The notes under the pieces were generated by a model. That model was not told where the DNA came from. It worked only from the letters and a program-made list of their open reading frames with translations, and made no database searches. The translations under genes were made by a program, and so were the position numbers. Positions 15,985-63,390 of a stretch of 64,000 nucleotides of DNA are shown here, in pieces. The stretch comes from an uncultured Candidatus Saccharibacteria bacterium (GTDB lineage: Bacteria > Patescibacteriota > Minisyncoccia > Phycocordibacterales > DATDWN01): the NCBI GenBank assembly GCA_964596875.1, contig CAZQVT010000001.1, positions 175,161-239,160 on the forward strand, given 5' to 3'. How positions within the stretch are numbered: the first letter of the stretch is position 1; each line of letters opens with the position of its first letter.

Positions 15985-16518
15985 ATGAAAAATGAAATAA
16001 AAATTATAGATAAGTTGCCCGTTGAAAGATGGGAGGAGTATAAAGAGTTAAGACTAGAAGCTCTAAGGACTGACCCAAGTGCCTTTTGGGCAGACTTTGA
16101 CTCCACTGAAAAGGTGGAAGATAAGGAGTGGAAAACCGAACTGGAAAGAAATATAAATGGCGATGAAATAATTATTTTTGCTGAATACGATAATAAATTA
16201 ATTGGTATGGGTACAGTTTATTTGTATGAAAGAGAAGATTGCAAACACAACGCCACATTGAAATCATTGTACGTTTCACCTGAACATAGAGGTAAAAAAA
16301 TAGGTGAAATTCTAGTAAAAAGAAGAATAGAGCTGATTCTTGAAAAACCTTACATTAGGAATATATTTTGTGAAATATTTGGGTATAACGTTTCTTCGAT
16401 AGAGCTTCATAAAAAACTTGGATTTGAAGAGGTTGGCAAAGTTAAGGATTTTATATTGCTAGATGGTAAGTATTTTGACTCACTAACTTTTCAAAAGAGG
16501 TTTGGTCAGAGAGAATAA
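15985..16518 (+). CDS. GNAT family N-acetyltransferase
   Basis: 177 aa, acetyl-CoA motif RGKKIGEIL. Confidence 0.7.
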   Translation: MKNEIKIIDKLPVERWEEYKELRLEALRTDPSAFWADFDSTEKVEDKEWKTELERNINGDEIIIFAEYDNKLIGMGTVYLYEREDCKHNATLKSLYVSPEHRGKKIGEILVKRRIELILEKPYIRNIFCEIFGYNVSSIELHKKLGFEEVGKVKDFILLDGKYFDSLTFQKRFGQRE

Positions 16519-16538: not shown

Positions 16539-16648
16539 ATGATCCCGTAAGAAATAGAAGGAGATCGGGATTACCATTATCAGATAATTCAAATAATTAA
16601 ATAAGGAGTAGTAATTAAATATACGATCTCCTATTTCAAACGGGATGA
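16539..16648 (+). promoter_or_regulatory. structured leader / TIR element L1 enclosing aspS start codon
   Basis: 5' arm ATGATCCCGTAAGAAAT pairs with 3' arm ATTTCAAACGGGATGA (ATG = aspS start); same arms in L2 and L3. Confidence 0.6.
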
Positions 16649-18039
16649 CAAGAATTTATATTAAAGATTTGGGGGCACATGTGGGGGAGGAGGTCACTAT
16701 TAAAGGCTGGGTAGACGTACGCCGAGACCAAGGAAAAATGGTCTTTATCGATATGCGAGATATGTCTGGCCGAGTTCAGTGTGTGGTTTTGCCAAACTAT
16801 ACAGAGGTTATTGAAAAGGTTAAAGAAGTTAGAACAGAATGGGTTCTAGAACTAAAAGGAAAAGTAAACAAAAGACCAGAAAGAAACATTAAGGCTGGTG
16901 TACTAAACGGGGATATTGAGCTAGAGGTTACTGGACTAGAAGTTCTAAACAAGTCTGACACTATCCCTTTTGATATTTCAGGAGATACAAAAGAGATAAA
17001 CGAAGAGGTGAGACTAAAATATAGATATGTAGATCTTCGTTCTGACCGAATGCAGAAAAACATTCGAAACCGTCACAAGGTAATAAAACACATACGAGAT
17101 TTTCTAGATAAAGAAAACTTTATTGAGGTGGAAACTCCAATGCTAACAAAATCTACACCAGAAGGTTCTCGAGACTATGTTGTTCCAGCTAGACTATATC
17201 CTGGAAAGTTTTATGCATTGCCACAGTCTCCACAACAGTACAAACAACTACTTATGACATCTGGAGTTGAAAAATATTTCCAAATAGCCCGATGTATGCG
17301 TGACGAGGACACTCGTGGAGACAGACAACCAGAGTTTACACAACTTGATATGGAAATATCTTTCGTTGCACGCGAGGATGTAATGGAGCTAAACGAGAAA
17401 CTACTTATAGATCTAGTTACAAAACTTTATCCAGAAAAGAAAATCCAACAGGTTCCTTTCCCACGACTTACATATGCGGAGGCAATGGAGAAATACAACT
17501 CTGACAAACCAGACCTGCGAGAAGATAAAAACGATCCGAACCTTTTGGCATTCTGCTGGGTGATAGATTTTCCTTTCTTTGAGAAAACTGACACAGGAGC
17601 ATGGACATTTACTCATAACCCATTTTCTAGACCAAAACCTGAACACATGGATTGGTTAATGAAGAAAGAAAATATTGCTGAGATACTTACAACTCAATAC
17701 GACGTTGCGCTAAACGGCTTTGAAATCGGTGGGGGAAGTATAAGAAACCATAACCCAGAGGCACTAGAAAAAGTTTTTGAAATCATGGGTCACAGTATGG
17801 AAAACATCAAAGCAAACTTTGGTCACATGCTTTCTGCATTTTCATTAGGTACTCCACCGCACGGAGGTATAGCGTGGGGACTAGATAGACTTGTTATGCT
17901 ACTACAAAACGAACCAAACATTCGTGAAGTTATTCCTTTTGCAAAAACTGGTGAAGGTAAGGACCCTATGATGGATTCTCCAAGTGAAATCTCTGACGAG
18001 CAACTGCTTGAACTAAATATCAAAACACTAAAGAAATAA
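16645..18039 (+). CDS. aspS: aspartate--tRNA ligase (short form without GAD insertion)
   Basis: class II motifs FYALPQSPQ, GGGSIRNHN; N-terminal OB fold; 464 aa. Confidence 0.8.
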   Translation: MTRIYIKDLGAHVGEEVTIKGWVDVRRDQGKMVFIDMRDMSGRVQCVVLPNYTEVIEKVKEVRTEWVLELKGKVNKRPERNIKAGVLNGDIELEVTGLEVLNKSDTIPFDISGDTKEINEEVRLKYRYVDLRSDRMQKNIRNRHKVIKHIRDFLDKENFIEVETPMLTKSTPEGSRDYVVPARLYPGKFYALPQSPQQYKQLLMTSGVEKYFQIARCMRDEDTRGDRQPEFTQLDMEISFVAREDVMELNEKLLIDLVTKLYPEKKIQQVPFPRLTYAEAMEKYNSDKPDLREDKNDPNLLAFCWVIDFPFFEKTDTGAWTFTHNPFSRPKPEHMDWLMKKENIAEILTTQYDVALNGFEIGGGSIRNHNPEALEKVFEIMGHSMENIKANFGHMLSAFSLGTPPHGGIAWGLDRLVMLLQNEPNIREVIPFAKTGEGKDPMMDSPSEISDEQLLELNIKTLKK

Positions 18040-26952: not shown

Positions 26953-27078
26953 ATGAATCCCGTAAGAAATTATTTAGTTAAAAGGATGAATGTGGTTATG
27001 TGTGATAAAATTATTCGAACAAACATTATTATTAATTTTATATACGGAAACTAAAGTTTCCTATTTCAAACGGGATGA
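26953..27078 (+). promoter_or_regulatory. structured leader / TIR element L2 enclosing murG start codon
   Basis: 5' arm ATGAATCCCGTAAGAAAT, penultimate hairpin ACGGAAAC-TAAA-GTTTCC, 3' arm TATTTCAAACGGGATGA. Confidence 0.6.
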
Positions 27079-28208
27079 AAATATTACTTACTGGTGGAGG
27101 TAGCGCAGGACATTTTTACCCACTTGTTGCGGTTGCACAAAAACTAAATGAACTAGCAAAAGAAAACAGGCTTTTGAAACCAGAGTTGTACTATATGTCG
27201 ACTGACCCTTTTGACGAAAACCTTTTGTACGAAAACAGTATTACCTTTATAAAAGTAAACGCGGGAAAAATCCGAAAAGATAAAACACTTTCGAACAGAA
27301 TCCTAAACTTTATGGATTTGTTTAGTACTTTTCACGGAGTGCTTACAGCGCTTTGGAAAGTTTTTGTTATTTATCCAGATGTAGTTTTTGGAAAAGGGGG
27401 CTATGTGAGTTTCCCAGCACTTTTTGCAGCAAGGTTTCTAGGAATACCGGTAGTGATACACGAGTCAGACAGTAAACCTGGAAAAGTAAACGCTTGGGCT
27501 GGAAAGTTTGCAACAAAAGTTGCGGTTTCATACCCCGATGCCGCTTCATACTTTAAGGCTGAAAAAACTGCCTACACCGGTAACCCGATAAGAAAAGAAA
27601 TAGAAGACCCACAAGTTTCTGGTTCACACGAGCATTTTGGTTTCGACAGCAGTATACCTACAGTTTTTGTTATAGGTGGTTCACAGGGTGCTCGTTTCAT
27701 AAACAGCGCTATCATGGATGCTTTGCCAGAACTTGTAAAGAAATACCAAGTCATACATCAGACGGGCGTAAACAACCTTTCCGTTATTCAGGAGACTTCT
27801 GCGGTGGTGCTTTTAAACAGTGAACACAAGGAAAGATACGTGGCAATACCGTACCTAAACGCCCTAAACCTGCGTATGGCGGCGGGGGCTGCAGATGTGA
27901 TAGTATCACGAGCAGGTTCAACTATATTTGAAATAGCGAGTTGGGGCAGGGCTTCTATTATTATCCCTATCCCAGAGCCAACAAGTCATGACCAAAAAAC
28001 AAACGCTTATGCCTATGCTAGAAGTGGCGCTGCGGTTGTAATAGAAGAAAAAAACATGGCACCAGGAATACTACTAGCAGAGATACAAAGAGTAGTAACT
28101 GTTGAAAAAGAAAAAATGCAGGCTGCAGCAAAAGCATTTTCTAGAAGAGATTCTGCAAGACTCATAGCCGAAGAGTTGATAGCAATCGGCCTACAACACG
28201 AGAGATGA
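27075..28208 (+). CDS. murG: undecaprenyldiphospho-muramoylpentapeptide beta-N-acetylglucosaminyltransferase
   Basis: N-terminal ILLTGGGSAGH motif, GT28 fold. Confidence 0.85.
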   Translation: MKILLTGGGSAGHFYPLVAVAQKLNELAKENRLLKPELYYMSTDPFDENLLYENSITFIKVNAGKIRKDKTLSNRILNFMDLFSTFHGVLTALWKVFVIYPDVVFGKGGYVSFPALFAARFLGIPVVIHESDSKPGKVNAWAGKFATKVAVSYPDAASYFKAEKTAYTGNPIRKEIEDPQVSGSHEHFGFDSSIPTVFVIGGSQGARFINSAIMDALPELVKKYQVIHQTGVNNLSVIQETSAVVLLNSEHKERYVAIPYLNALNLRMAAGAADVIVSRAGSTIFEIASWGRASIIIPIPEPTSHDQKTNAYAYARSGAAVVIEEKNMAPGILLAEIQRVVTVEKEKMQAAAKAFSRRDSARLIAEELIAIGLQHER

Positions 28209-28220
28209 TTAAAATTAACT

Positions 28221-28303
28221 CATCTGCGTTGTTGCAGTTCAGTTTTGTTCGTTCACCTTACTACTTGTAAGGCTCACTCACAAAACATCCTGCGCCTAGC
28301 ATC
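28221..28303 (+). repeat. intergenic structured hairpin element, copy B
   Basis: ~95% identical to copy A over ~85 nt. Confidence 0.7.
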
Positions 28304-28336
28304 TGAACCAATTTAAATCATCTCAGAACAAATTAT

Positions 28337-29805: not shown

Positions 29806-31077
29806 ATGAGATGGCAGAAATACATACTTTTTCTAATACTCCTACTTTCAACTAGTATTGCTATTGCCCAAAACGCCACAACTTCAGAAGTTCTAAAAAA
29901 CAAAATCGACGAAAGAAACAACCAGATAAAAAAACTTGAAGAAGAAATAAAAGTCTACAACAAAGAAGTAGAAACTGCTGGCAAACAAGCCAAGACTTTG
30001 CAGACTACACTAAAAACTCTTGACCTTACCAAAAAGAAAATCGAAACGGATATTTCGCTTACAGAAAACAAAATAACTAAAACTACCCTAACTATAGATC
30101 AACTTGGTCAAGAAATAGGTACTACTAGAAGCAAAATAGATGTAAACAAACAGGCTATAAGTGCGGCACTCAAAAATAGACAGTACATGGACAGTACTGA
30201 CTTTATTAGTATGATGCTGTCGAAAAAAAGTCTGGGTGAAATATGGGGCGACATAGACGACATAGAGGAAGTTCGTGAAGCGATACGTGTAAAGACTTTG
30301 GAGTTAGACTCTCTAAAGAAAAATATGGAAAACAATCAAGAAAATCTAAAAGGTGAAAAGACCAACTTGGTTACCCTAAAACAAGACCTCTCTGGTAAAA
30401 AACAAGCCGTAGAATACACAACTCAGGAAAAGGCTGCGGTGCTAGTTGAAACAAAAAATAAAGAACAAACATACAAAGAACTTGTAAAAACAAAACAACA
30501 ACAAAAAGATCAGTTCGAGAAAGAACTTTTCGAATACGAGTCACAACTAAAATATCTTATCGACCCAAACAGTTACCCTAAAGGTAGAAGCGGAATTTTT
30601 GCGTGGCCACTAGATAAAGTTATCATTACACAAAAGTTTGGTAAAACTGTTGGCGCAGAAAAACTATACGCATCTGGTAGTCACAATGGTGTAGACTTTG
30701 GCGCAAGTATTGGAACAAGAGTTAAAAATGTTTTAGACGGAGAAGTTGTGGGTACAGGGGACACAGACAAATACCCTGGCTGTTACTCTTTTGGTCGCTG
30801 GGTTATGGTAAAACACGGCAATGGTCTCTCTACAATATACGGACACCTTTCTGTGATAAGTGTGCAGAAAGGTCAAACACTTAAGACTGGAGATACGATA
30901 GGTTTTTCTGGAAACACAGGTTACTCTACTGGTCCGCATTTACATATATCTGTTTATGCGACTCAAGGTGTGCGTATAGAAAAATACGTAAATAGTAGGG
31001 GATGTAAAGAGGCGACTCTCCCACTTGCCGACATCAAAGCCTACCTAGACCCACTGGCATACTTCCCATCACTTTAG
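29806..31077 (+). CDS. M23 family metallopeptidase with N-terminal coiled coil (EnvC-like)
   Basis: signal/TM, long coiled coil, HNGVDFGA...GNTGYSTGPHLH M23 motifs. Confidence 0.85.
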   Translation: MRWQKYILFLILLLSTSIAIAQNATTSEVLKNKIDERNNQIKKLEEEIKVYNKEVETAGKQAKTLQTTLKTLDLTKKKIETDISLTENKITKTTLTIDQLGQEIGTTRSKIDVNKQAISAALKNRQYMDSTDFISMMLSKKSLGEIWGDIDDIEEVREAIRVKTLELDSLKKNMENNQENLKGEKTNLVTLKQDLSGKKQAVEYTTQEKAAVLVETKNKEQTYKELVKTKQQQKDQFEKELFEYESQLKYLIDPNSYPKGRSGIFAWPLDKVIITQKFGKTVGAEKLYASGSHNGVDFGASIGTRVKNVLDGEVVGTGDTDKYPGCYSFGRWVMVKHGNGLSTIYGHLSVISVQKGQTLKTGDTIGFSGNTGYSTGPHLHISVYATQGVRIEKYVNSRGCKEATLPLADIKAYLDPLAYFPSL

Positions 31078-31101
31078 GCATATATTTGGTATAATAAACA
31101 T

Positions 31102-31308
31102 ATGAAAAAACCTAGAACAAACCAAGGATTTGTAGTGAAAATTGTTTTGATCATCGTTGCGCTTATCTTTGTGAAATACTATTTCCATATAGATATAGTT
31201 GAATGGTATAAGTCTCCTACAGGCCAAAAGTACGTTGGAAGTATCTGGAATATGATAAAGGACTTCTACAACTGGGCCGACAACTACGCTAGGACTAAGG
31301 TGTTTTAG
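31102..31308 (+). CDS. small hypothetical membrane protein (68 aa)
   Basis: ORF only; stop abuts stop of convergent RloB-like gene. Confidence 0.25.
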   Translation: MKKPRTNQGFVVKIVLIIVALIFVKYYFHIDIVEWYKSPTGQKYVGSIWNMIKDFYNWADNYARTKVF

Positions 31309-31830
31309 TTACGAATTGAATAATTTATGTATTTCAGGAAAGTATGTTTTGAAAATAATATTGTTTGGTATTATCTTTATTAAATCAATATTTTTCATGT
31401 GTTGTGCTTCCTTGCCGAAGTGGCTCAAAAAATTCTTTTTACAGATGGATCTGAAATTTTTTGAATCGATAGTATTTTTGATTTTTTTACCCACTATTTC
31501 CAGTAAGACACCCTCTGGATTGGGGTTACATAATTGAACTTTGTGGCGAAGACCTTTTATGTATAGTGCTATTTTTTGAGAATCATCAAGATCGTAGTCC
31601 GCCATAAAAAAGAAGTGGATTTTCTCACTTAGTTTTTTTGGTTTAATTTCATACTTTCGTGTTAAGCTAGAAACTTTATTACTGAAAGTCTTTAAGTCAT
31701 TAAACCCCCCCATAATCTCATATTTAAAAGATAAGGGCTTTGAGCAAAAATAAGTTTTGAAAAATCCAAAAAGATTGTATTCTGTGGGTCCTTCACAACA
31801 TATCACATATACATCCTTGGTACTTCTCAT
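31309..31830 (-). CDS. RloB-like (TOPRIM-like) protein, AbiLii-like
   Basis: N-terminal VYVICCEGPTEYNLF matches RloB family CEGxxTExxYF signature; 14 nt downstream of AAA_21 ATPase gene. Confidence 0.6.
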   Translation of the reverse strand: MRSTKDVYVICCEGPTEYNLFGFFKTYFCSKPLSFKYEIMGGFNDLKTFSNKVSSLTRKYEIKPKKLSEKIHFFFMADYDLDDSQKIALYIKGLRHKVQLCNPNPEGVLLEIVGKKIKNTIDSKNFRSICKKNFLSHFGKEAQHMKNIDLIKIIPNNIIFKTYFPEIHKLFNS

Positions 31831-31843
31831 AAATAGTTTATTT

Positions 31844-33052
31844 TTAAATAAATTGCTTGATCATGTGTTCGAATCCAATTGTATCAGGTGTGCCTCCAAG
31901 CAAACCGAGTCTATACTTCTTCTTTAAATTATCCCTATTTTTTACATCCTTCAATTCAGATACCTTGTAAACAATTGAATTATGCTTCTCTTTTTCCACA
32001 ATAAAAGTTTGATCAAGATTCAGGAGCTCTAAGGTTTCGTGATTATGTGTCGCAAAAAAAATTTGAGCATTACCAGTATTTATATCTTTGTTTTTAAATA
32101 AAGATATAATTGATTTCTCTATTTCTGGGTGAAAATACAAATTTGTCTCGTCATAGACAACTAAACCGCCCTTTTTGAAGACAGTAAGTAAATTATATAT
32201 ATGTGCAAAAAGCTCCTTTGTTCCAGCTGATTCTTGCATTAAATCTACGCTTTCATAAAAACCTTTATGTGAAACTTTCACTGATGATGTATTGTTTTCA
32301 ATATCAAGTGATTCAATAGTGTCGTCAAATCGACTCATTATATCTCTAGTAAGTTTTATCATTTCTTCTTTCTTGTTTTTTTCAGCAGTACTTATTCGAA
32401 ATGCATGAGATATTATTCCAAAAATAGTTGGCATAGAATCTAGCTCCGCAGTTTTCGTAAACCAGGACTTTAAATCCCTAAAATAATTAAAATCTTGACC
32501 AGCCCTAAACCCCTCTATTAGATGTGATAGAAGGGTTTGGTACTCAGCAAGCTTTAAAACTGAAAAATATGATTTATGATCTTTGAAGTCTGGGCCAAAA
32601 GTTATTTTTCCATTGAGTCTGTTGAATACAAGCTTAGGTTTTCCAGATTTTAACTTTGTGTTAGTTACGAACAGAGTTTCCGAGCTAATATTTTTTCTAT
32701 CCTTAATTTCTATGTCGTATTTGTAATAGTTTTCATTCAACAAAATATCTATACCAAGCTTGGTTGGTTTATTTTTAAAAGTAGAATGAAAGTTGTTGTA
32801 GGCTAAAATAGTGTCTTTTTGTTCAGGAGTAAGTGTTGTTTTTGTATACATTAAACGTATAAGCGAACTGATTGCTTTTAAAATAGTACTTTTGCCACTA
32901 GCATTAGCACCGTAGAATCCATTTAGAAGAGAAATCTTCTGATTTTTAAAGTTTAAATATCCATCTTCAGTAGTAGAACCTCCCTTTATAAAGTTCAATT
33001 CTAGTGGTTTACCAACAGAATAAAAGTTTGCTAAACGTATTTTTGTTATCAT
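31844..33052 (-). CDS. AAA_21/ABC-type ATPase, RloA/AbiLi-like
   Basis: Walker A GANASGKST, Walker B VVYDE, H-loop ATHNHE; 402 aa; low GC. Confidence 0.7.
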   Translation of the reverse strand: MITKIRLANFYSVGKPLELNFIKGGSTTEDGYLNFKNQKISLLNGFYGANASGKSTILKAISSLIRLMYTKTTLTPEQKDTILAYNNFHSTFKNKPTKLGIDILLNENYYKYDIEIKDRKNISSETLFVTNTKLKSGKPKLVFNRLNGKITFGPDFKDHKSYFSVLKLAEYQTLLSHLIEGFRAGQDFNYFRDLKSWFTKTAELDSMPTIFGIISHAFRISTAEKNKKEEMIKLTRDIMSRFDDTIESLDIENNTSSVKVSHKGFYESVDLMQESAGTKELFAHIYNLLTVFKKGGLVVYDETNLYFHPEIEKSIISLFKNKDINTGNAQIFFATHNHETLELLNLDQTFIVEKEKHNSIVYKVSELKDVKNRDNLKKKYRLGLLGGTPDTIGFEHMIKQFI

Positions 33053-33557
33053 ATTAATATTTATGCAATAAAATGTACAATTTAAAGTATAGTACCTTAA
33101 ATTAAATACGTCAAACCTTAGGGCAGGGGACTTCCCTACAAATAATAGGAAATTTTAGAACCTCAAATAATGGGGTTCGGATGGTAAAAGGGGTGCTATC
33201 TAGGTACCTAGAAAAGAGAACTCTAAGCCAATTATTTGGTGCATTTTTATATATAAATATTTAATGAAAACCATTTAATGATTAAACTGAACAAACGAAT
33301 CTTTTGAGCAAACCCCCTTAGGGACTATGCTAAAAAGATATATTGTGCGACACGGCTATATACTCCCCCCCTCTATATAACTAACTAAAAACAATAAAAC
33401 ATTTAATTACTAAAATAATTGAATATGTAATTATTTTGCATCAAAAAAATCCCGCCCCCACCCCACCCTGGTTCAGCCGGTTTACACAAAAGTAAAAATA
33501 CATATACTTATTACGAAACACAATATCCGTTCTTTTCGGTTTCTGGAGGTTCGCGCC

Positions 33558-34007
33558 ATGAATGGCATTGAAGGAAACGTTCAGCTGGTGTTCGTGCTGA
33601 TGGGCGTGATCTCTGGTCTTTTGGGCGGAATTGCCCACGCCAAGAAACGGCACGGTTTGGGGTGCTACAAGAACGGCACTCTGAGTCTGACACCACAGTG
33701 GTACCGCTGTGGCAGTTGCTGGACTGCCGTAGTCTTCTACGCGGTTTTCATGGGCTGCATTTTTGCGCTCATGCACGACATTTACTACGCTGGCACTCAG
33801 ACAGTTGGAGGTGCCATCGGACAAGTTGTCGTCACGTTTTTTGGTGTCATATTGTCTGCCGTGTTGACGTTAGCGGTGGCACTGCTGGGCTTGCTTGCCA
33901 TCGGCTACTCGGAACATCGCTGGCCTCAGTGTCGTAAGTATAAGTGGATCTCCTACAGCTTCGCAGTCATCGTTCGAACGTATCTCTATCACCTCACTAG
34001 ATACTAG
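33558..34007 (+). CDS. hypothetical integral membrane protein (149 aa, ~4 TM, Cys-containing), GC-rich minicassette 4
   Basis: ATG 7 nt after GGAGG; GC-rich. Confidence 0.45.
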   Translation: MNGIEGNVQLVFVLMGVISGLLGGIAHAKKRHGLGCYKNGTLSLTPQWYRCGSCWTAVVFYAVFMGCIFALMHDIYYAGTQTVGGAIGQVVVTFFGVILSAVLTLAVALLGLLAIGYSEHRWPQCRKYKWISYSFAVIVRTYLYHLTRY

Positions 34008-44699: not shown

Positions 44700-46091
44700 C
44701 TATTCTAAAGTTAAGGTATTTACAAGGCTTACATCCTCTGGGTTTCTAGGTATGTTTTGGTTCCAAAAAGGCTTGGTTTCGATCCATGCTTCACTAACTG
44801 CTGGATACTGACTTATGACCACTTTTGCTGACTTTTTAGAGAGGCCAAGTAACTCAGTTTTAAGTTTGTTTTCATCAAAAACCCATACAAAATTAGCATT
44901 TCCTCCTATAGTAAACGATACTTGCTTGTCCACATCAGTAAAATTGTTTATCTTGAATTCTAGACTAGAAAGGTTAAGTATTTTTACAGCCTCAGACTCA
45001 ACATCAGGCATGAGTTTGTTTAGTAAGGCCTTTGAAAGTGCCCCCTTATCAAAAATAATAGCAGTTACTTTTGCTTTCTTTCGCAATGTCACATCTTGTT
45101 TGGTTGTGTCAGGAACTTGGACAGTATTTTCAAATTCAAATGAAAGTCCGTCTTTATACGAAACAAAATTTGCTGGTATTTGAGCTTCGATATCTTTAAG
45201 AAGAGTTGCTTCCAGTTCAGTTTTCATTTCTTTGTCTGAAGCGTCTAGTGTTTCCTTAGAAACCACTTTTTGCATACCAGAAAAACCTCCTGTCATTTCT
45301 GTCTTTGATCTAGCGTACACAGATGTATATTTAGGATCGCCCTTAAAACCAGGAATAGTAAAGTCTTTTAGGCCAATGTTGTAGGAAACTCCAGGTTTGT
45401 CTGCTTCTACAGTGACTTCTACGCTTCCCGGCACTGTTTTGCCGTCTTTTACCTCTCTACCAGGCACAGTTGCGGGAGCTATAAGTCTAAAAATAAGGCC
45501 TTCTGGGGTTTGGAAACGAGTAGTAGCAACAAGTTTTTGTGGCTGATTGTTAAAGTTGTTATAAATCACGATCTTTCCAGAACTTTTTCTATCTACTTTT
45601 TCTTCTCCAGAGGCTTTCGCTGTTTTTTCTATATCTTTAGACACGGTTACAGTCTGGAAACTTAAACCAGTCGCAACATCTTTTTTCGCGGTAAATGACT
45701 CTGAAATAGTTTTCTGTTCCTGTTTTGGAGAAATTTTTACAGTCGCTTTTTTGAAAAAAGCAGATACTGCAAATGCCAAAACTAAAATTAATACAAGTGA
45801 AGAAATGTAAAACCATTTTTTAGAAGGTTTTTTAGGTTCATTGAACTCGTATTTGTATGAAGGGGCATTGAAAGTCTCTGGAGGAGTTTTTATAAGTGGC
45901 TCTATCTTCATAGGAGCCTGTTTTATTATTGGAACTGGTCTAGAAAAGTCTTCTGCCATTTTAGGCATTTCTTCTGGCTCATCACGGTATTTTGGAGTCG
46001 GTGCCGGCTTTTCAGTTTCTCGTCTTCCAGCGAGTTTAACATTTCGAATAGATTTTTTAGGAACTACGTCCTGTACTACGTTCTTTTTCAT
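44700..46091 (-). CDS. hypothetical membrane-anchored protein (Pro/Lys-rich cytoplasmic N-terminus, one TM, large external domain); possibly PilN/O-like
   Basis: 463 aa; TM at ~aa 95-117; follows actin-like ATPase gene. Confidence 0.35.
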   Translation of the reverse strand: MKKNVVQDVVPKKSIRNVKLAGRRETEKPAPTPKYRDEPEEMPKMAEDFSRPVPIIKQAPMKIEPLIKTPPETFNAPSYKYEFNEPKKPSKKWFYISSLVLILVLAFAVSAFFKKATVKISPKQEQKTISESFTAKKDVATGLSFQTVTVSKDIEKTAKASGEEKVDRKSSGKIVIYNNFNNQPQKLVATTRFQTPEGLIFRLIAPATVPGREVKDGKTVPGSVEVTVEADKPGVSYNIGLKDFTIPGFKGDPKYTSVYARSKTEMTGGFSGMQKVVSKETLDASDKEMKTELEATLLKDIEAQIPANFVSYKDGLSFEFENTVQVPDTTKQDVTLRKKAKVTAIIFDKGALSKALLNKLMPDVESEAVKILNLSSLEFKINNFTDVDKQVSFTIGGNANFVWVFDENKLKTELLGLSKKSAKVVISQYPAVSEAWIETKPFWNQNIPRNPEDVSLVNTLTLE

Positions 46092-55170: not shown

Positions 55171-56481
55171 TTATACAGGAAGATTTGAAGGAGCCTCAGC
55201 TTTCTTAGACTCAATTCTGTTAACAGTAGGAGTAGTAGATACGACACCAGGAAAGTGAAAAAGTGTTGCCAACTCTTCAGTGTTTAGAATAAAATGTGGA
55301 CTCTGGTATGGAGCGTAATAGTAAGCACGTCTTTTAAACGCATCCAACAGATCTTGTTTCTCTTCGTTTCGTTTCTTATCGCTTCTTTTTTTCCATGCTA
55401 GAAACACATTACTGTACCTTTCGTCAGACCCTCGTGCAGGTTTGAAACCATTTAGACTAGAGTTAAAGTGAGTTATACCCCCAACTATACCTCCTAGGTT
55501 AGAAGGGTCAAATACATCGTTTGGAGCAAAATATATTGCACGAATACCCACATCGAAGCCACTTTTAGAAATACTTCGACTCAGTGCATTTATGGTTTCC
55601 TTTTCTACATCTGTAAGTTGTCTACCAGTACCAGGAATAAGTTTGCCCTCCTTGTCTTTTTCACCTTTTGTACCAGCGATTATCTTTTCTATTTGCTCCC
55701 TTGCTGCCTCTTTCCAACGCAAATCTTTTTTCTCCCATCTATCCCAAATGTCTTTTGGTCGAAATGTCTCCCATATTTTTGCATTACTCCAGGTTTTGCC
55801 TGGATCTTTTTCTTCAGCTTTGTGTGACCTCACTATGATTTGAATCCAGACTTGATGTCTAGAGTCAAGGTTACCCAAAAACTCTATAAGTGGTGTCATT
55901 GGATCTATTTTGTATTCTTCTTTTGGATCCTTATCCATTCCATAGTCAACATAGGTTTTAATTGGAAAAACATCATCTTTTGTTAGATCAAACTCTGTAG
56001 CCCACATTGTGATTTGTGTTGGGTCATAACTTACTGGAAGTGTGTAGTCTTCTACCACATGTATTTCTATACCTGGATATTGTGAATAAAGGTTTGCTTC
56101 AATATTTGCCTTAAATGCTTTTCTTGTCCAAACAAAAAACCTTACTTCACCATTTATAGATGCGATTTCCAGTGAAAAATGTGCTCGAACTTTTCCTTCC
56201 CAATACTTTTCAAACCAGTTTTTTTCACCAACAGTTTGATATAGAGATGCAATGAAAAACTCTGCAGCCTTTGGCGACTTATATACCTCGCGAGGAAGTT
56301 TTATTTCCAAAAGCAAATGTGTTTGTTTTGCCTGAAATTGTGCACGAACATACATAACCCACAAACTCCATGCTATATAAAGTATAATTGCCGGTATCCA
56401 AACATAAGCCGAGTAAAGTATAAACTTCAAAGTCATCTGCCCAACAGGCCCCTTGAAAAGATCTATATAGATTTGAAACAT
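55171..56481 (-). CDS. hypothetical membrane protein (436 aa)
   Basis: N-terminal TM pair, no recognised motifs. Confidence 0.4.
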   Translation of the reverse strand: MFQIYIDLFKGPVGQMTLKFILYSAYVWIPAIILYIAWSLWVMYVRAQFQAKQTHLLLEIKLPREVYKSPKAAEFFIASLYQTVGEKNWFEKYWEGKVRAHFSLEIASINGEVRFFVWTRKAFKANIEANLYSQYPGIEIHVVEDYTLPVSYDPTQITMWATEFDLTKDDVFPIKTYVDYGMDKDPKEEYKIDPMTPLIEFLGNLDSRHQVWIQIIVRSHKAEEKDPGKTWSNAKIWETFRPKDIWDRWEKKDLRWKEAAREQIEKIIAGTKGEKDKEGKLIPGTGRQLTDVEKETINALSRSISKSGFDVGIRAIYFAPNDVFDPSNLGGIVGGITHFNSSLNGFKPARGSDERYSNVFLAWKKRSDKKRNEEKQDLLDAFKRRAYYYAPYQSPHFILNTEELATLFHFPGVVSTTPTVNRIESKKAEAPSNLPV

Positions 56482-62264: not shown

Positions 62265-63266
62265 CTAAATTCTGAACTCTATAACGTCGCCGTCCTTTAC
62301 AATATACTCCTTCCCCTCCGTCCTAACCTGCCCCTTCTCTCTCGCTACTGCATATGAACCAGACGCAAGTAAGCCATCGCAGTGAACAACTTCTGCACGT
62401 ATAAACTTATCTTTAAAGTCTGTATGTATTGCTGTTCCTGCCATAGGCGCGCTCCAACCTTTCTCTATAGTCCATGCGCGACTCTCGTCCTCACCTGTCG
62501 TAAAATAAGTAATTAGTCCCAAAGTTTCGTATGCTTTTTTAATTAGATCGTCGAAACCCTTTTCAAAAACTGGATCAATCTCAACAAAGTTTCCAGGGAT
62601 TCTATCTTTTACATCCAAAACATTTTCACTACTCGCCTCCGATGTGTTTAGTGCATACAAAATAGGTTTCATCGTCAAAAGGTGCATGTTTTTTACAACT
62701 TCTAGTTCTTCTTCGGTCAGCAAAAGAGTATTTGCAAGTTTGCCTTGTTTTAAAGTCTCCTGTACTTTTGTAAGAACTTCGTTTTCAAAAACAGCTTCTT
62801 TTTTGTTTTGTTTTACTTCACGCTGAATATTTCCAAGTCTTTTTGTTATAGTTTCGTCATCCGCCAAAACTAGTTCGTAGTTTATAACATCTATATCTCC
62901 TAGTGGGTCAACTTTTCCATGCACATGGATAACATCGTCGTCCTTGAATACTCGCACCATTTCAAGAATCGCATCTACCTCACGAATATTAGTCAAAAAT
63001 TTATTTCCTAGACCTTCTCCTGCTGCCGCCCCTTTTACAAGACCTGCAATATCAACAAACTCGATAACTGCTGGGATAGTTTTCGCAGATTTAGAAAGTT
63101 CTGAAAGTTTCCAAAGTCTTTCGTCTGGAACAGGCACAATACCAACAGATGGGTCGATAGTACAAAAAGGATAGTTTTCTGCCGGAACGCCTTTTTTTGT
63201 AAGTGCATTAAAAAGCGTAGATTTACCCACGTTTGGAAGGCCAACGATACCTATAGAAAGTTTCAT
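62265..63266 (-). CDS. ychF: ribosome-binding ATPase YchF (Obg family)
   Basis: G1 GLPNVGKST, C-terminal TGS domain. Confidence 0.85.
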   Translation of the reverse strand: MKLSIGIVGLPNVGKSTLFNALTKKGVPAENYPFCTIDPSVGIVPVPDERLWKLSELSKSAKTIPAVIEFVDIAGLVKGAAAGEGLGNKFLTNIREVDAILEMVRVFKDDDVIHVHGKVDPLGDIDVINYELVLADDETITKRLGNIQREVKQNKKEAVFENEVLTKVQETLKQGKLANTLLLTEEELEVVKNMHLLTMKPILYALNTSEASSENVLDVKDRIPGNFVEIDPVFEKGFDDLIKKAYETLGLITYFTTGEDESRAWTIEKGWSAPMAGTAIHTDFKDKFIRAEVVHCDGLLASGSYAVAREKGQVRTEGKEYIVKDGDVIEFRI

Positions 63267-63390
63267 CCCGTTTGAGATAGGAAACCTGTGGTTTCCGTAG
63301 TTAAATTATGTTTTATTAAATTATTTCGACCACTTAGTTATTTATAAATATATTTTTCAACATTAACCACGTAATCTCTTACGGGATCAT
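63263..63390 (-). promoter_or_regulatory. structured leader / TIR element L3 enclosing ychF start codon
   Basis: on - strand: ATGATCCCGTAAGAGAT ... ACGGAAACCACAGGTTTCC TATCTCAAACGGGATGA. Confidence 0.6.

Follow-up and report, generated by a model that had tools for sequence, protein, structure and literature searches.

In the 64-kb stretch of contig CAZQVT010000001.1 analysed here (the window), the start codons of aspS, murG and ychF lie immediately behind three short elements, L1, L2 and L3. What are these elements, and why do they end exactly where the genes begin? A preliminary description had offered two readings: a cis-acting control RNA common to the three genes (thermosensor, riboswitch or switch based on an upstream open reading frame, uORF), or a MITE (miniature inverted-repeat transposable element) with inverted ends of ∼ 13 nt that enters at ATGA and restores the start codon. 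Empty sites in relatives, duplicated targets and a parent that carries an open reading frame (ORF) all favour the second. L1–L3 are almost certainly mobile insertions, and we think it quite likely that they are MITEs of a family from the Parcubacteria/Paceibacteria of the Candidate Phyla Radiation (CPR) that inserts at start codons and bears a GIY-YIG nuclease gene.

All three elements were found where they had first been placed. Their 3′ end, TCCTATYTCAAACGGGATG (19 nt), occurs exactly three times in the window compared with 0.08 occurrences expected from shuffled sequences, and the 5′ core ATCCCGTAAGA also occurs exactly three times, with zero mismatches. The bodies are 102–120 nt long and have both ends in common. 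The ATG that follows the 3′ end is in each case the natural start of a long ORF (aspS, murG or ychF) with a typical N-terminus. The elements do not fill the whole intergenic gap, as had been assumed; 12–20 nt of original spacer and the old start codon remain upstream. The mini-ORF ATG ATC CCG TAA is present in L1 and L3 and absent from L2. The parts of the elements, including an internal pairing named P3, are listed below.

16539–16542, + strand: L1, upstream target copy ATGA; original aspS start, opening the mini-ORF at 16539–16550 (3 codons)
16543–16644, + strand: L1 element body, 102 nt, subfamily B; interior common to 16 related B/B′ copies elsewhere
16542–16555, + strand: L1 5′ arm, (A)TCCCGT-AA-GAAAT
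16633–16646, + strand: L1 3′ arm, ATTTC-AA-ACGGG(AT)
16560–16567 and 16624–16631, + strand: L1 P3 long-range helix, GGAGATCG paired with CGATCTCC
16645–16648, + strand: L1, downstream target copy ATGA; working start of aspS (16645–18039)
26953–26957, + strand: L2, upstream target copy ATGAA; original murG start, opening a 33-codon junk uORF (MNPVRN...)
26958–27074, + strand: L2 element body, 117 nt, subfamily A; aligns to the GIY-YIG parents with the nuclease core deleted
26957–26970, + strand: L2 5′ arm
27045–27051 and 27056–27061, + strand: L2 P3 hairpin, CGGAAAC, loop TAAA, GTTTCC
27063–27076, + strand: L2 3′ arm, ATTTC-AA-ACGGGAT
27075–27079, + strand: L2, downstream target copy ATGAA; working start of murG (27075–28208)
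63387–63390, − strand: L3, upstream target copy ATGA; original ychF start, opening the mini-ORF at 63390–63379
63267–63386, − strand: L3 element body, 120 nt, subfamily A; ends identical to those of the ORF-bearing element of locus L073
63387–63374, − strand: L3 5′ arm; GAGAT paired to ATCTC
63297–63290 and 63286–63280, − strand: L3 P3 hairpin, CGGAAACC, loop ACA, GGTTTCC
63278–63265, − strand: L3 3′ arm, ATCTC-AA-ACGGGAT
63263–63266, − strand: L3, downstream target copy ATGA; working start of ychF (63266–62265)

Empty orthologous sites and the fold of the ends

Homologues of MurG and YchF place the window in the Parcubacteria/Paceibacteria, near Zambryskibacteria. The comparison of orthologous loci that had been proposed as a check was carried out with relatives whose proteins are 88–92% identical. 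The sites at aspS, murG and ychF were all empty. Two relatives (L002 and L003; MurG 88% identical) lack the murG and aspS insertions; their ftsW and murG genes overlap by ATGA. In L002, aspS follows directly after ggtagattactaaacatATGA; the window flank gttagattaggaacatATGA aligns with it and is then followed by the element and ATGA. The murG site is also empty in L023–L028 (MurG 91–92% identical), where it reads aaatcatATGAaaatc, ftsW adjoining or overlapping murG with no gap. At ychF, gttagtatgtttttATG continues straight into the gene in L087 and L088 (YchF 92%). A leader RNA would be expected upstream of the orthologous genes in related genomes, and at all three genes it is absent.

Occupancy is patchy in other ways. 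At murG, the window and a 77% relative (L033) both carry an element, yet the 88–92% relatives do not. Two orthologous start codons carry subfamily A in one genome and subfamily B in another (L014:6540–6662 versus L032:990–1095, and L035:5778–5899 versus L065:1671–1775), which implies independent insertions or replacement. Together, the mixed subfamilies and the patchy filling of murG suggest that elements are gained and lost repeatedly at a restricted number of permissive sites. Separately, the YchF homologues P0398 (367 aa) and P0457 (366 aa) have ∼ 34 residues beyond the usual 333; they may have been annotated from an upstream ATG, with an element inserted at the ychF start translated as part of the protein.

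When L1–L3 were folded as RNA, the arms paired across the start codons as had been described. The closing helix consists of AUCCCGU with ACGGGAU, a 2 × 2 A·A loop, and GARAU with AUYUC; the inner helix of L3 shows a compensatory change from A-U to G-C. Folding energies range from −26.6 to −31.2 kcal/mol, with z-scores of −2.1 to −4.3 relative to shuffles. The penultimate hairpin noticed earlier was confirmed, as GGAAAC-loop-GTTTCC in L2 and L3 and as a long-range pairing of GGAGATCG with CGATCTCC in L1. The A·A mismatches are indeed seen in the window copies, but they are the trait of one subfamily and not of the whole family, in which the loop is AA/AA, TT/TT or fully paired. Their apparent conservation is an ascertainment artefact; among parent proteins, the fully paired version (SLTG) and the A·A version (SQTG) number 71 versus 11. 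The terminal helix covaries, with 85.9% of cells paired compared with 79.7% in shuffles (arm-only alignment; 0/500 shuffles reached 85.9%), and sliding the partner arm drops the pairing to 18–46% of cells. Covarying pairs of the inner helix include GAAAT/ATTTC, GAGAT/ATCTC, GAACTC/GAGTTC, GACTCC/GGAGTC and GAGGCAG/CTGCCTC.

A closing helix that includes the AUG and folds better than shuffles, that covaries, and that keeps a fixed orientation relative to the downstream gene would suit conserved leader RNAs controlling aspS, murG and ychF in cis by hiding the AUG. We nevertheless regard such control as very improbable. The elements are missing at the same three genes in the 88–92% relatives, and these empty sites largely refute it. 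Copies stand before over 50 genes of unrelated function, their interior is nuclease coding sequence in decay, and the mismatch loop is variable. The uORFs are not conserved and range from 3 to 38 codons in the miniature copies. The element interiors yielded no consensus fold or conserved structure. Rfam gave zero matches for the whole window at gathering thresholds, and its E-value mode returned, for two elements, only sub-threshold matches to miRNA hairpins and nothing usable. A tRNA-like structure was rejected, ARAGORN having found neither tRNA nor tmRNA in the window. We suggest instead that, because the elements are miniature mobile copies with inverted ends, the AUG-burying helix is a by-product of those ends; it may still influence translation, but as a secondary effect.

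The element family and its GIY-YIG parent

Scanning DNA with the pattern ATCCCGTAAGA-N(75–105)-TCAAACGGGAT gave matches at 13 loci in contigs representing one genome per species and at 41 loci in metagenome contigs; a relaxed search of the fetched DNA added copies outside the pattern. In total 61 distinct copies were analysed, and the 64 kb of the window hold three. The labelled contigs that bear matches are all of CPR type, save one assigned to a Methanobrevibacter metagenome-assembled genome (L017). Its arms do not extend and it has no ATG context, and we treated it as a chance match. Both 3′-end matches in viral contigs were likewise chance matches within coding sequence, and a protein scan of viral contigs found one weak, unrelated locus. 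Outside the window the bodies are 67–122 nt long. The ends, TCCCGTWWGARAT and ATYTCWWACGGGA, are terminal inverted repeats, and subfamilies are distinguished by their interiors and by the inner part of the terminal helix. Behind nearly every copy, the regenerated ATG opens an ORF of 100 codons or more. The downstream genes are unrelated (leuS, map, rpiB, ftsX, glycosyltransferases, membrane proteins and others), and the orientation relative to them is identical in all copies. The subfamily B′ copies, which at first seemed to be in opposite orientation, have the same interior as B when read in the orientation of the gene, with a TT/TT rather than an AA/AA loop.

With the element boundaries set at TCCCGT...ACGGG, 38 of the 61 copies are flanked by a direct repeat of 5 bp (ATGNN), 12 (L1 and L3 among them) by one of 4 bp (ATGN), and one by a repeat of 6 bp. 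In the other 10 the upstream repeat is decayed or unmatched (e.g. GTGAA, ATTAA, TTTAA). The variable bases are equal on both sides (GA, GG, GT, and ATGAC in L082) and thus derive from the target. The old ATG is kept upstream and the new ATG lies directly after the 3′ end of the element. A shorter duplication of 2 bp (GN), with ends ATCCCGT...ACGGGAT, was considered and rejected. The A before TCCCGT was forced by the search pattern, and L082 (ATGAC on both sides), L053 (ATGG directly before TCCCGT) and L042 show that this base belongs to the target. The copies are short and non-coding (L1–L3 have no intact ORF), have inverted ends and duplicated targets, are dispersed and polymorphic, and have a parent; these are all the features of a MITE that were testable here.

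The parent came to light through a lone 3′ end in L064, which belongs to a 281-bp unit (L064:7065–7345) composed of the 5′ end ATCCTGTAAGAGAT, an 88-aa GIY-YIG ORF and the 3′ end GGTTTCCCATCTCAAACGGGA followed by TAA. Parent units of 279–282 bp were found between co-directional genes in six independent contexts (L064, L070, L073, L079, L082 and L085). Their sole gene, located between TCCCGTWWGARAT and ATYTCWWACGGGA, encodes an 86-aa GIY-YIG nuclease of the Slx1/UPF0213 type. In L064 the unit entered at ATAA, in overlap with the upstream gene's stop, and not at ATG, and its 5′ end has a C-to-T change; targets besides ATGN therefore exist.

The nuclease ORF is built into both ends. Its N-terminus MNPVRD corresponds to ATG AAT CCC GTA AGA GAT, i.e. 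the host ATG and the 5′ end of the element read in frame with the nuclease. The C-terminus, ...FLSLTG or ...FLSQTG, corresponds to TTC CTA TCT C(T/A)A ACG GGA and is followed by TGA, so that the stop and the regenerated host ATG overlap in the sequence ATGA. This overlap with the downstream gene is present in each of the six contexts, and in L073 the ORF also overlaps the stop of the upstream gene. Judged by its arrangement, the ATGA junction has the layout used for translational coupling.

A protein search returned 686 homologues at E < 1e-5. Among the best 120, lengths of 86 aa (53/120) and 95 aa (44/120) prevail, MNPVR is the predominant N-terminus of the longer forms (41 proteins), and ∼ 103 end in ...FLSLTG or ...FLSQTG. 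The wider family comprises 9,214 clusters (50% identity) at E ≤ 1e-3, and only the nearest members have termini encoded by element ends. The homologues all carry Pfam PF01541. The parent protein matches PDB 1zg2 (UPF0213; E = 1.4e-8) and, weakly, SLX1 (7wme); with the group I intron endonuclease model it reaches 21.9 bits, the cutoff being 56. The catalytic residues Y12, Y14, Y25, G27, R35 and E59 are conserved in 40 sequences of 44–85% identity, and the parent nuclease looks functional. One 117-aa homologue, P0259, repeats a single peptide, KFTTSEVKDFDSWPN, in its N- and C-terminal regions and may represent another subfamily, bounded by terminal direct rather than inverted repeats. A conventional 80-aa UPF0213 GIY-YIG gene that has no inverted ends (L038:2982–3224, − strand) sits immediately upstream of a B′ miniature copy (L038:2867–2971).

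How do the miniature copies relate to these units? L2, L3 and other subfamily A copies align with the parents along the first ∼ 105 nt and again along the last ∼ 30 nt (alignment A4). The 5′ stretch consists of the 5′ end and decayed N-terminal codons up to TTACGGAAAC (codons for D-L-R-K-R), and the deletion falls exactly between CGGAAAC and GTTTCC. In the parents these are the strands of P3, a 14–15-bp inverted repeat inside the ORF. In five haplotypes, compensatory changes, of which several are synonymous, preserve P3 pairing, which argues that P3 is selected as a nucleic-acid structure. The miniature copies retain it as a hairpin or long-range helix. The nuclease core of ∼ 160 bp has been lost by deletion between the P3 strands, the ends and P3 being kept while the rest decayed into AT-rich sequence. 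We consider it very likely that the window copies derive from the GIY-YIG unit by internal deletion.

Possible mobilizing enzyme and proposed coupling to the host gene

Insertion, target duplication, the existence of the family and the relation between parent and derivative are established by the comparisons above. A mechanism that would connect them begins with integration at a start codon, so that ATGN or ATGNN is repeated on both sides and an identical ATG stands behind the 3′ end. The parent would borrow the promoter and start codon of the host, the captured ATG would start translation of the nuclease, and the TGA/ATG overlap would return ribosomes to the host gene by termination–reinitiation. 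In the miniature copies, initiation at the old AUG that stays upstream would send a ribosome through the 5′ arm, opening it and freeing the real AUG; alternatively, RNase III might process the helix. The coupling and unmasking steps are ones that we infer.

Which enzyme moves the elements? The GIY-YIG nuclease is the strongest candidate, because it is the sole ORF between the ends and is interlocked with both of them and with P3. We put the chance that it is the mobilizing enzyme at about even. Several points weigh against this assignment and the account built around it. The mobilizing role is deduced only from the position of the ORF. Neither a DNA-binding module nor strand-transfer chemistry is obvious in the 86-aa GIY-YIG domain, and we know of no bare GIY-YIG domain that transposes DNA. 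Characterized GIY-YIG enzymes, I-TevI and Eco29kI among them, leave 2-nt 3′ overhangs, by which a duplication of 4–5 bp is not obviously explained. A tblastn search of the window found no GIY-YIG gene that could act as a source in trans. The search patterns required ATCCCGTAAGA and TCAAACGGGAT, which biased the sample to one subfamily and to an A before TCCCGT. The miniature copies have lost the stop/start overlap and their uORF ends are scattered. Finally, the leaderless transcription discussed below is read from sequence.

The serious rival is a conventional transposase or recombinase encoded elsewhere, which would move the MITEs with the GIY-YIG gene as passenger or addiction-type cargo. 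A 4–5-bp duplication combined with inverted ends is the classical DDE signature, an 86-aa domain seems too small for recognition, cleavage and joining, and the window has no nuclease gene. However, ∼ 600 kb of element-bearing loci gave only the 280-bp GIY-YIG units as longer units with these ends, and the nuclease ORF both contains the conserved P3 and supplies its N-terminus from the 5′ end and its C-terminus and stop from the 3′ end. The ten window ORFs tested against Pfam included no such transposase and no integrase. We see this alternative as possible, though doubtful. Models of the IS200/IS605, serine-recombinase and attC-like types were rejected, as they clash with the duplicated variable bases or their defining motifs are missing.

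If the nuclease does act on the ends, the parent could be an autonomous transposon equipped with nothing more than an 86–95-aa Slx1-like GIY-YIG nuclease, which would recognize the folded ends (P1-P2-P3) and insert at start codons. The captured host promoter and ATG would drive its expression, the ATGA overlap would spare the host gene, and the window copies would be mobilized in trans. This proposal is tentative, and we give it rather less than an even chance.

How translation starts in this organism bears on what an insertion does to its target. Shine–Dalgarno (SD) sequences are essentially absent among the 57 window genes, and TGnTAnAAT (extended −10) boxes are situated 6–9 nt upstream of many window ATGs (e.g. 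5540, 13205, 18057, 44700–46091 and 55171–56481), which suggests that leaderless mRNAs are widespread. At 27/61 insertion sites (∼ 44%), a −10 box, defined as a hexamer matching TATAAT at ≥ 5/6 positions, ends 5–10 nt before the old ATG, with a peak at 6–9 nt. Since these boxes are so close to the old ATG, many targets are probably leaderless genes; the remainder are probably operon-internal stop/start junctions. An outward promoter inside the element was rejected, because sites from a consensus scan are no commoner than in shuffles. TATYTC was rejected as a −10 box, because the invariant final T is missing and the motif is not conserved in other subfamilies.

A helix at the element borders could also be dealt with on the transcript. 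Were P1-P2-P3 a substrate of RNase III, the element would be cut from the transcript and the mRNA would start at or just before the real AUG, becoming near-leaderless. The 12–14-bp helix and P3 lie exactly at the element borders, the host appears reliant on leaderless, SD-free initiation, and the hairpins of the Correia MITEs of Neisseria are cut by RNase III. GIY-YIG insertions that are not introns are tolerated in CPR rRNA genes (PMC11270868), where removal at the RNA level would be needed. Compared with a typical RNase III site, however, the helix is short and broken up, and cutting inside it would leave a few leader nucleotides and not a 5′-terminal AUG. We consider such processing unlikely.

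Several other features of the window were recorded. An insert of ∼ 125 nt (28209–28336) separates the murG stop from the gltX start, which are only 4 nt apart in the closest relatives (L023). It bears no relation to the ATG element, contains an inverted repeat of its own (GTTCAGTTTTGT...ACAAAAC..CTGAAC) and may belong to a second family of miniature mobile elements. A GNAT acetyltransferase gene (15985–16518) is located between an ABC-transporter gene and aspS, which are 27 nt apart in L002. At 31309–33052 (− strand), a 402-aa AAA_21 (AbiEii-like) ATPase is encoded beside a 173-aa protein that has no family match; both genes are absent from the syntenic region of L002, and the pair looks like a small defence-type island. 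The cumulative GC skew peaks at ∼ 30000–34000, where gene orientation changes from + to − and genes converge, and this region looks like a replication terminus.

Relation to known elements and meaning

Among known elements, L1–L3 invite comparison with bacterial MITEs such as Correia of Neisseria, RUP, ERIC and Nezha. These are also ∼ 100–150 bp long and non-coding, have inverted repeats and a target duplication, are multi-copy, polymorphic between relatives and co-transcribed with their neighbours, and form a long hairpin. Unlike them, the present family targets the start codon (ATGN(N)), regenerates the ATG and has a fixed orientation, and its parent is a 280-bp GIY-YIG unit rather than an insertion sequence with a DDE transposase. 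MIRUs of mycobacteria and RPEs of Rickettsia are small repeats in operons or genes that do not destroy expression; MIRUs contain small ORFs that overlap, at their ends, the stop and start codons next to them, and RPEs insert in frame. However, MIRUs are tandem direct repeats with neither inverted ends nor a nuclease parent, RPEs sit inside coding sequence, and neither duplicates a start codon. IS200/IS605 elements with PATE, and REP/RAYT, resemble our elements in being very small, in having ends recognized as hairpins and in giving rise to non-autonomous palindromic derivatives. They use HUH Y1 transposases and insert 3′ of a tetra- or pentanucleotide, with no duplication and no terminal inverted repeats; the present family duplicates the variable target bases and is bounded by terminal inverted repeats.

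On the enzyme side, GIY-YIG homing endonuclease genes (I-TevI, Seg proteins) are likewise selfish units whose only gene is a GIY-YIG nuclease. Homing endonucleases possess additional DNA-binding domains, recognize sites that are long and specific, and use recombination to spread to the same locus. The parent described here differs in its bare domain, inverted ends, target duplication and dozens of unrelated loci that share only ATGN(N). Stand-alone Slx1-like proteins (UPF0213/YhbQ, PDB 1zg2) have the same domain and size, with catalytic Tyr, Arg and Glu conserved, but the gene here is multi-copy, lies between inverted ends and uses a captured host ATG. A 2006 survey viewed bacterial Slx1-like proteins as vertically inherited, repair-type nucleases (PMC1564403). 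Also among the nearest published work is a 2024 study of CPR rRNA genes, which reported GIY-YIG ORFs within insertions of neither the group I nor the group II intron type and judged them not to be spread by homing (PMC11270868). Compared by description, these share the host group and a GIY-YIG ORF with our family; inverted ends, start-codon targeting and miniature forms are not described for them. Within the searchable full-text literature, to the exclusion of subscription-only sources, we found no description of the present element. Its unusual traits are a start-codon target with the ATG regenerated, a fixed orientation with the parent hitch-hiking on host translation, and a 280-bp GIY-YIG parent.

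The family explains a recurrent feature of CPR genomes that annotation pipelines have missed, namely long ‘intergenic’ hairpins at gene starts and GIY-YIG mini-genes with odd MNPVRD... N-termini, and recognizing it would correct start-codon and operon calls. If the 86-aa nuclease does mobilize the elements, it would represent a new and extremely small class of transposase with a simple 4–5-bp target; if the parent is autonomous, no autonomous DNA transposon would be smaller, and none before it would have used a GIY-YIG enzyme. The miniature copies put a stable helix on the AUG of genes that are essential, in an organism that lacks SD sequences, and offer a natural test case for SD-independent, leaderless or reinitiation translation. 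For the organisms themselves, the elements show how a selfish lifestyle is possible in genomes almost without spare intergenic DNA, by insertion at the start codon, its duplication, a presumed takeover of the host signals that start transcription and translation, and hand-back of ribosomes through a stop/start overlap.

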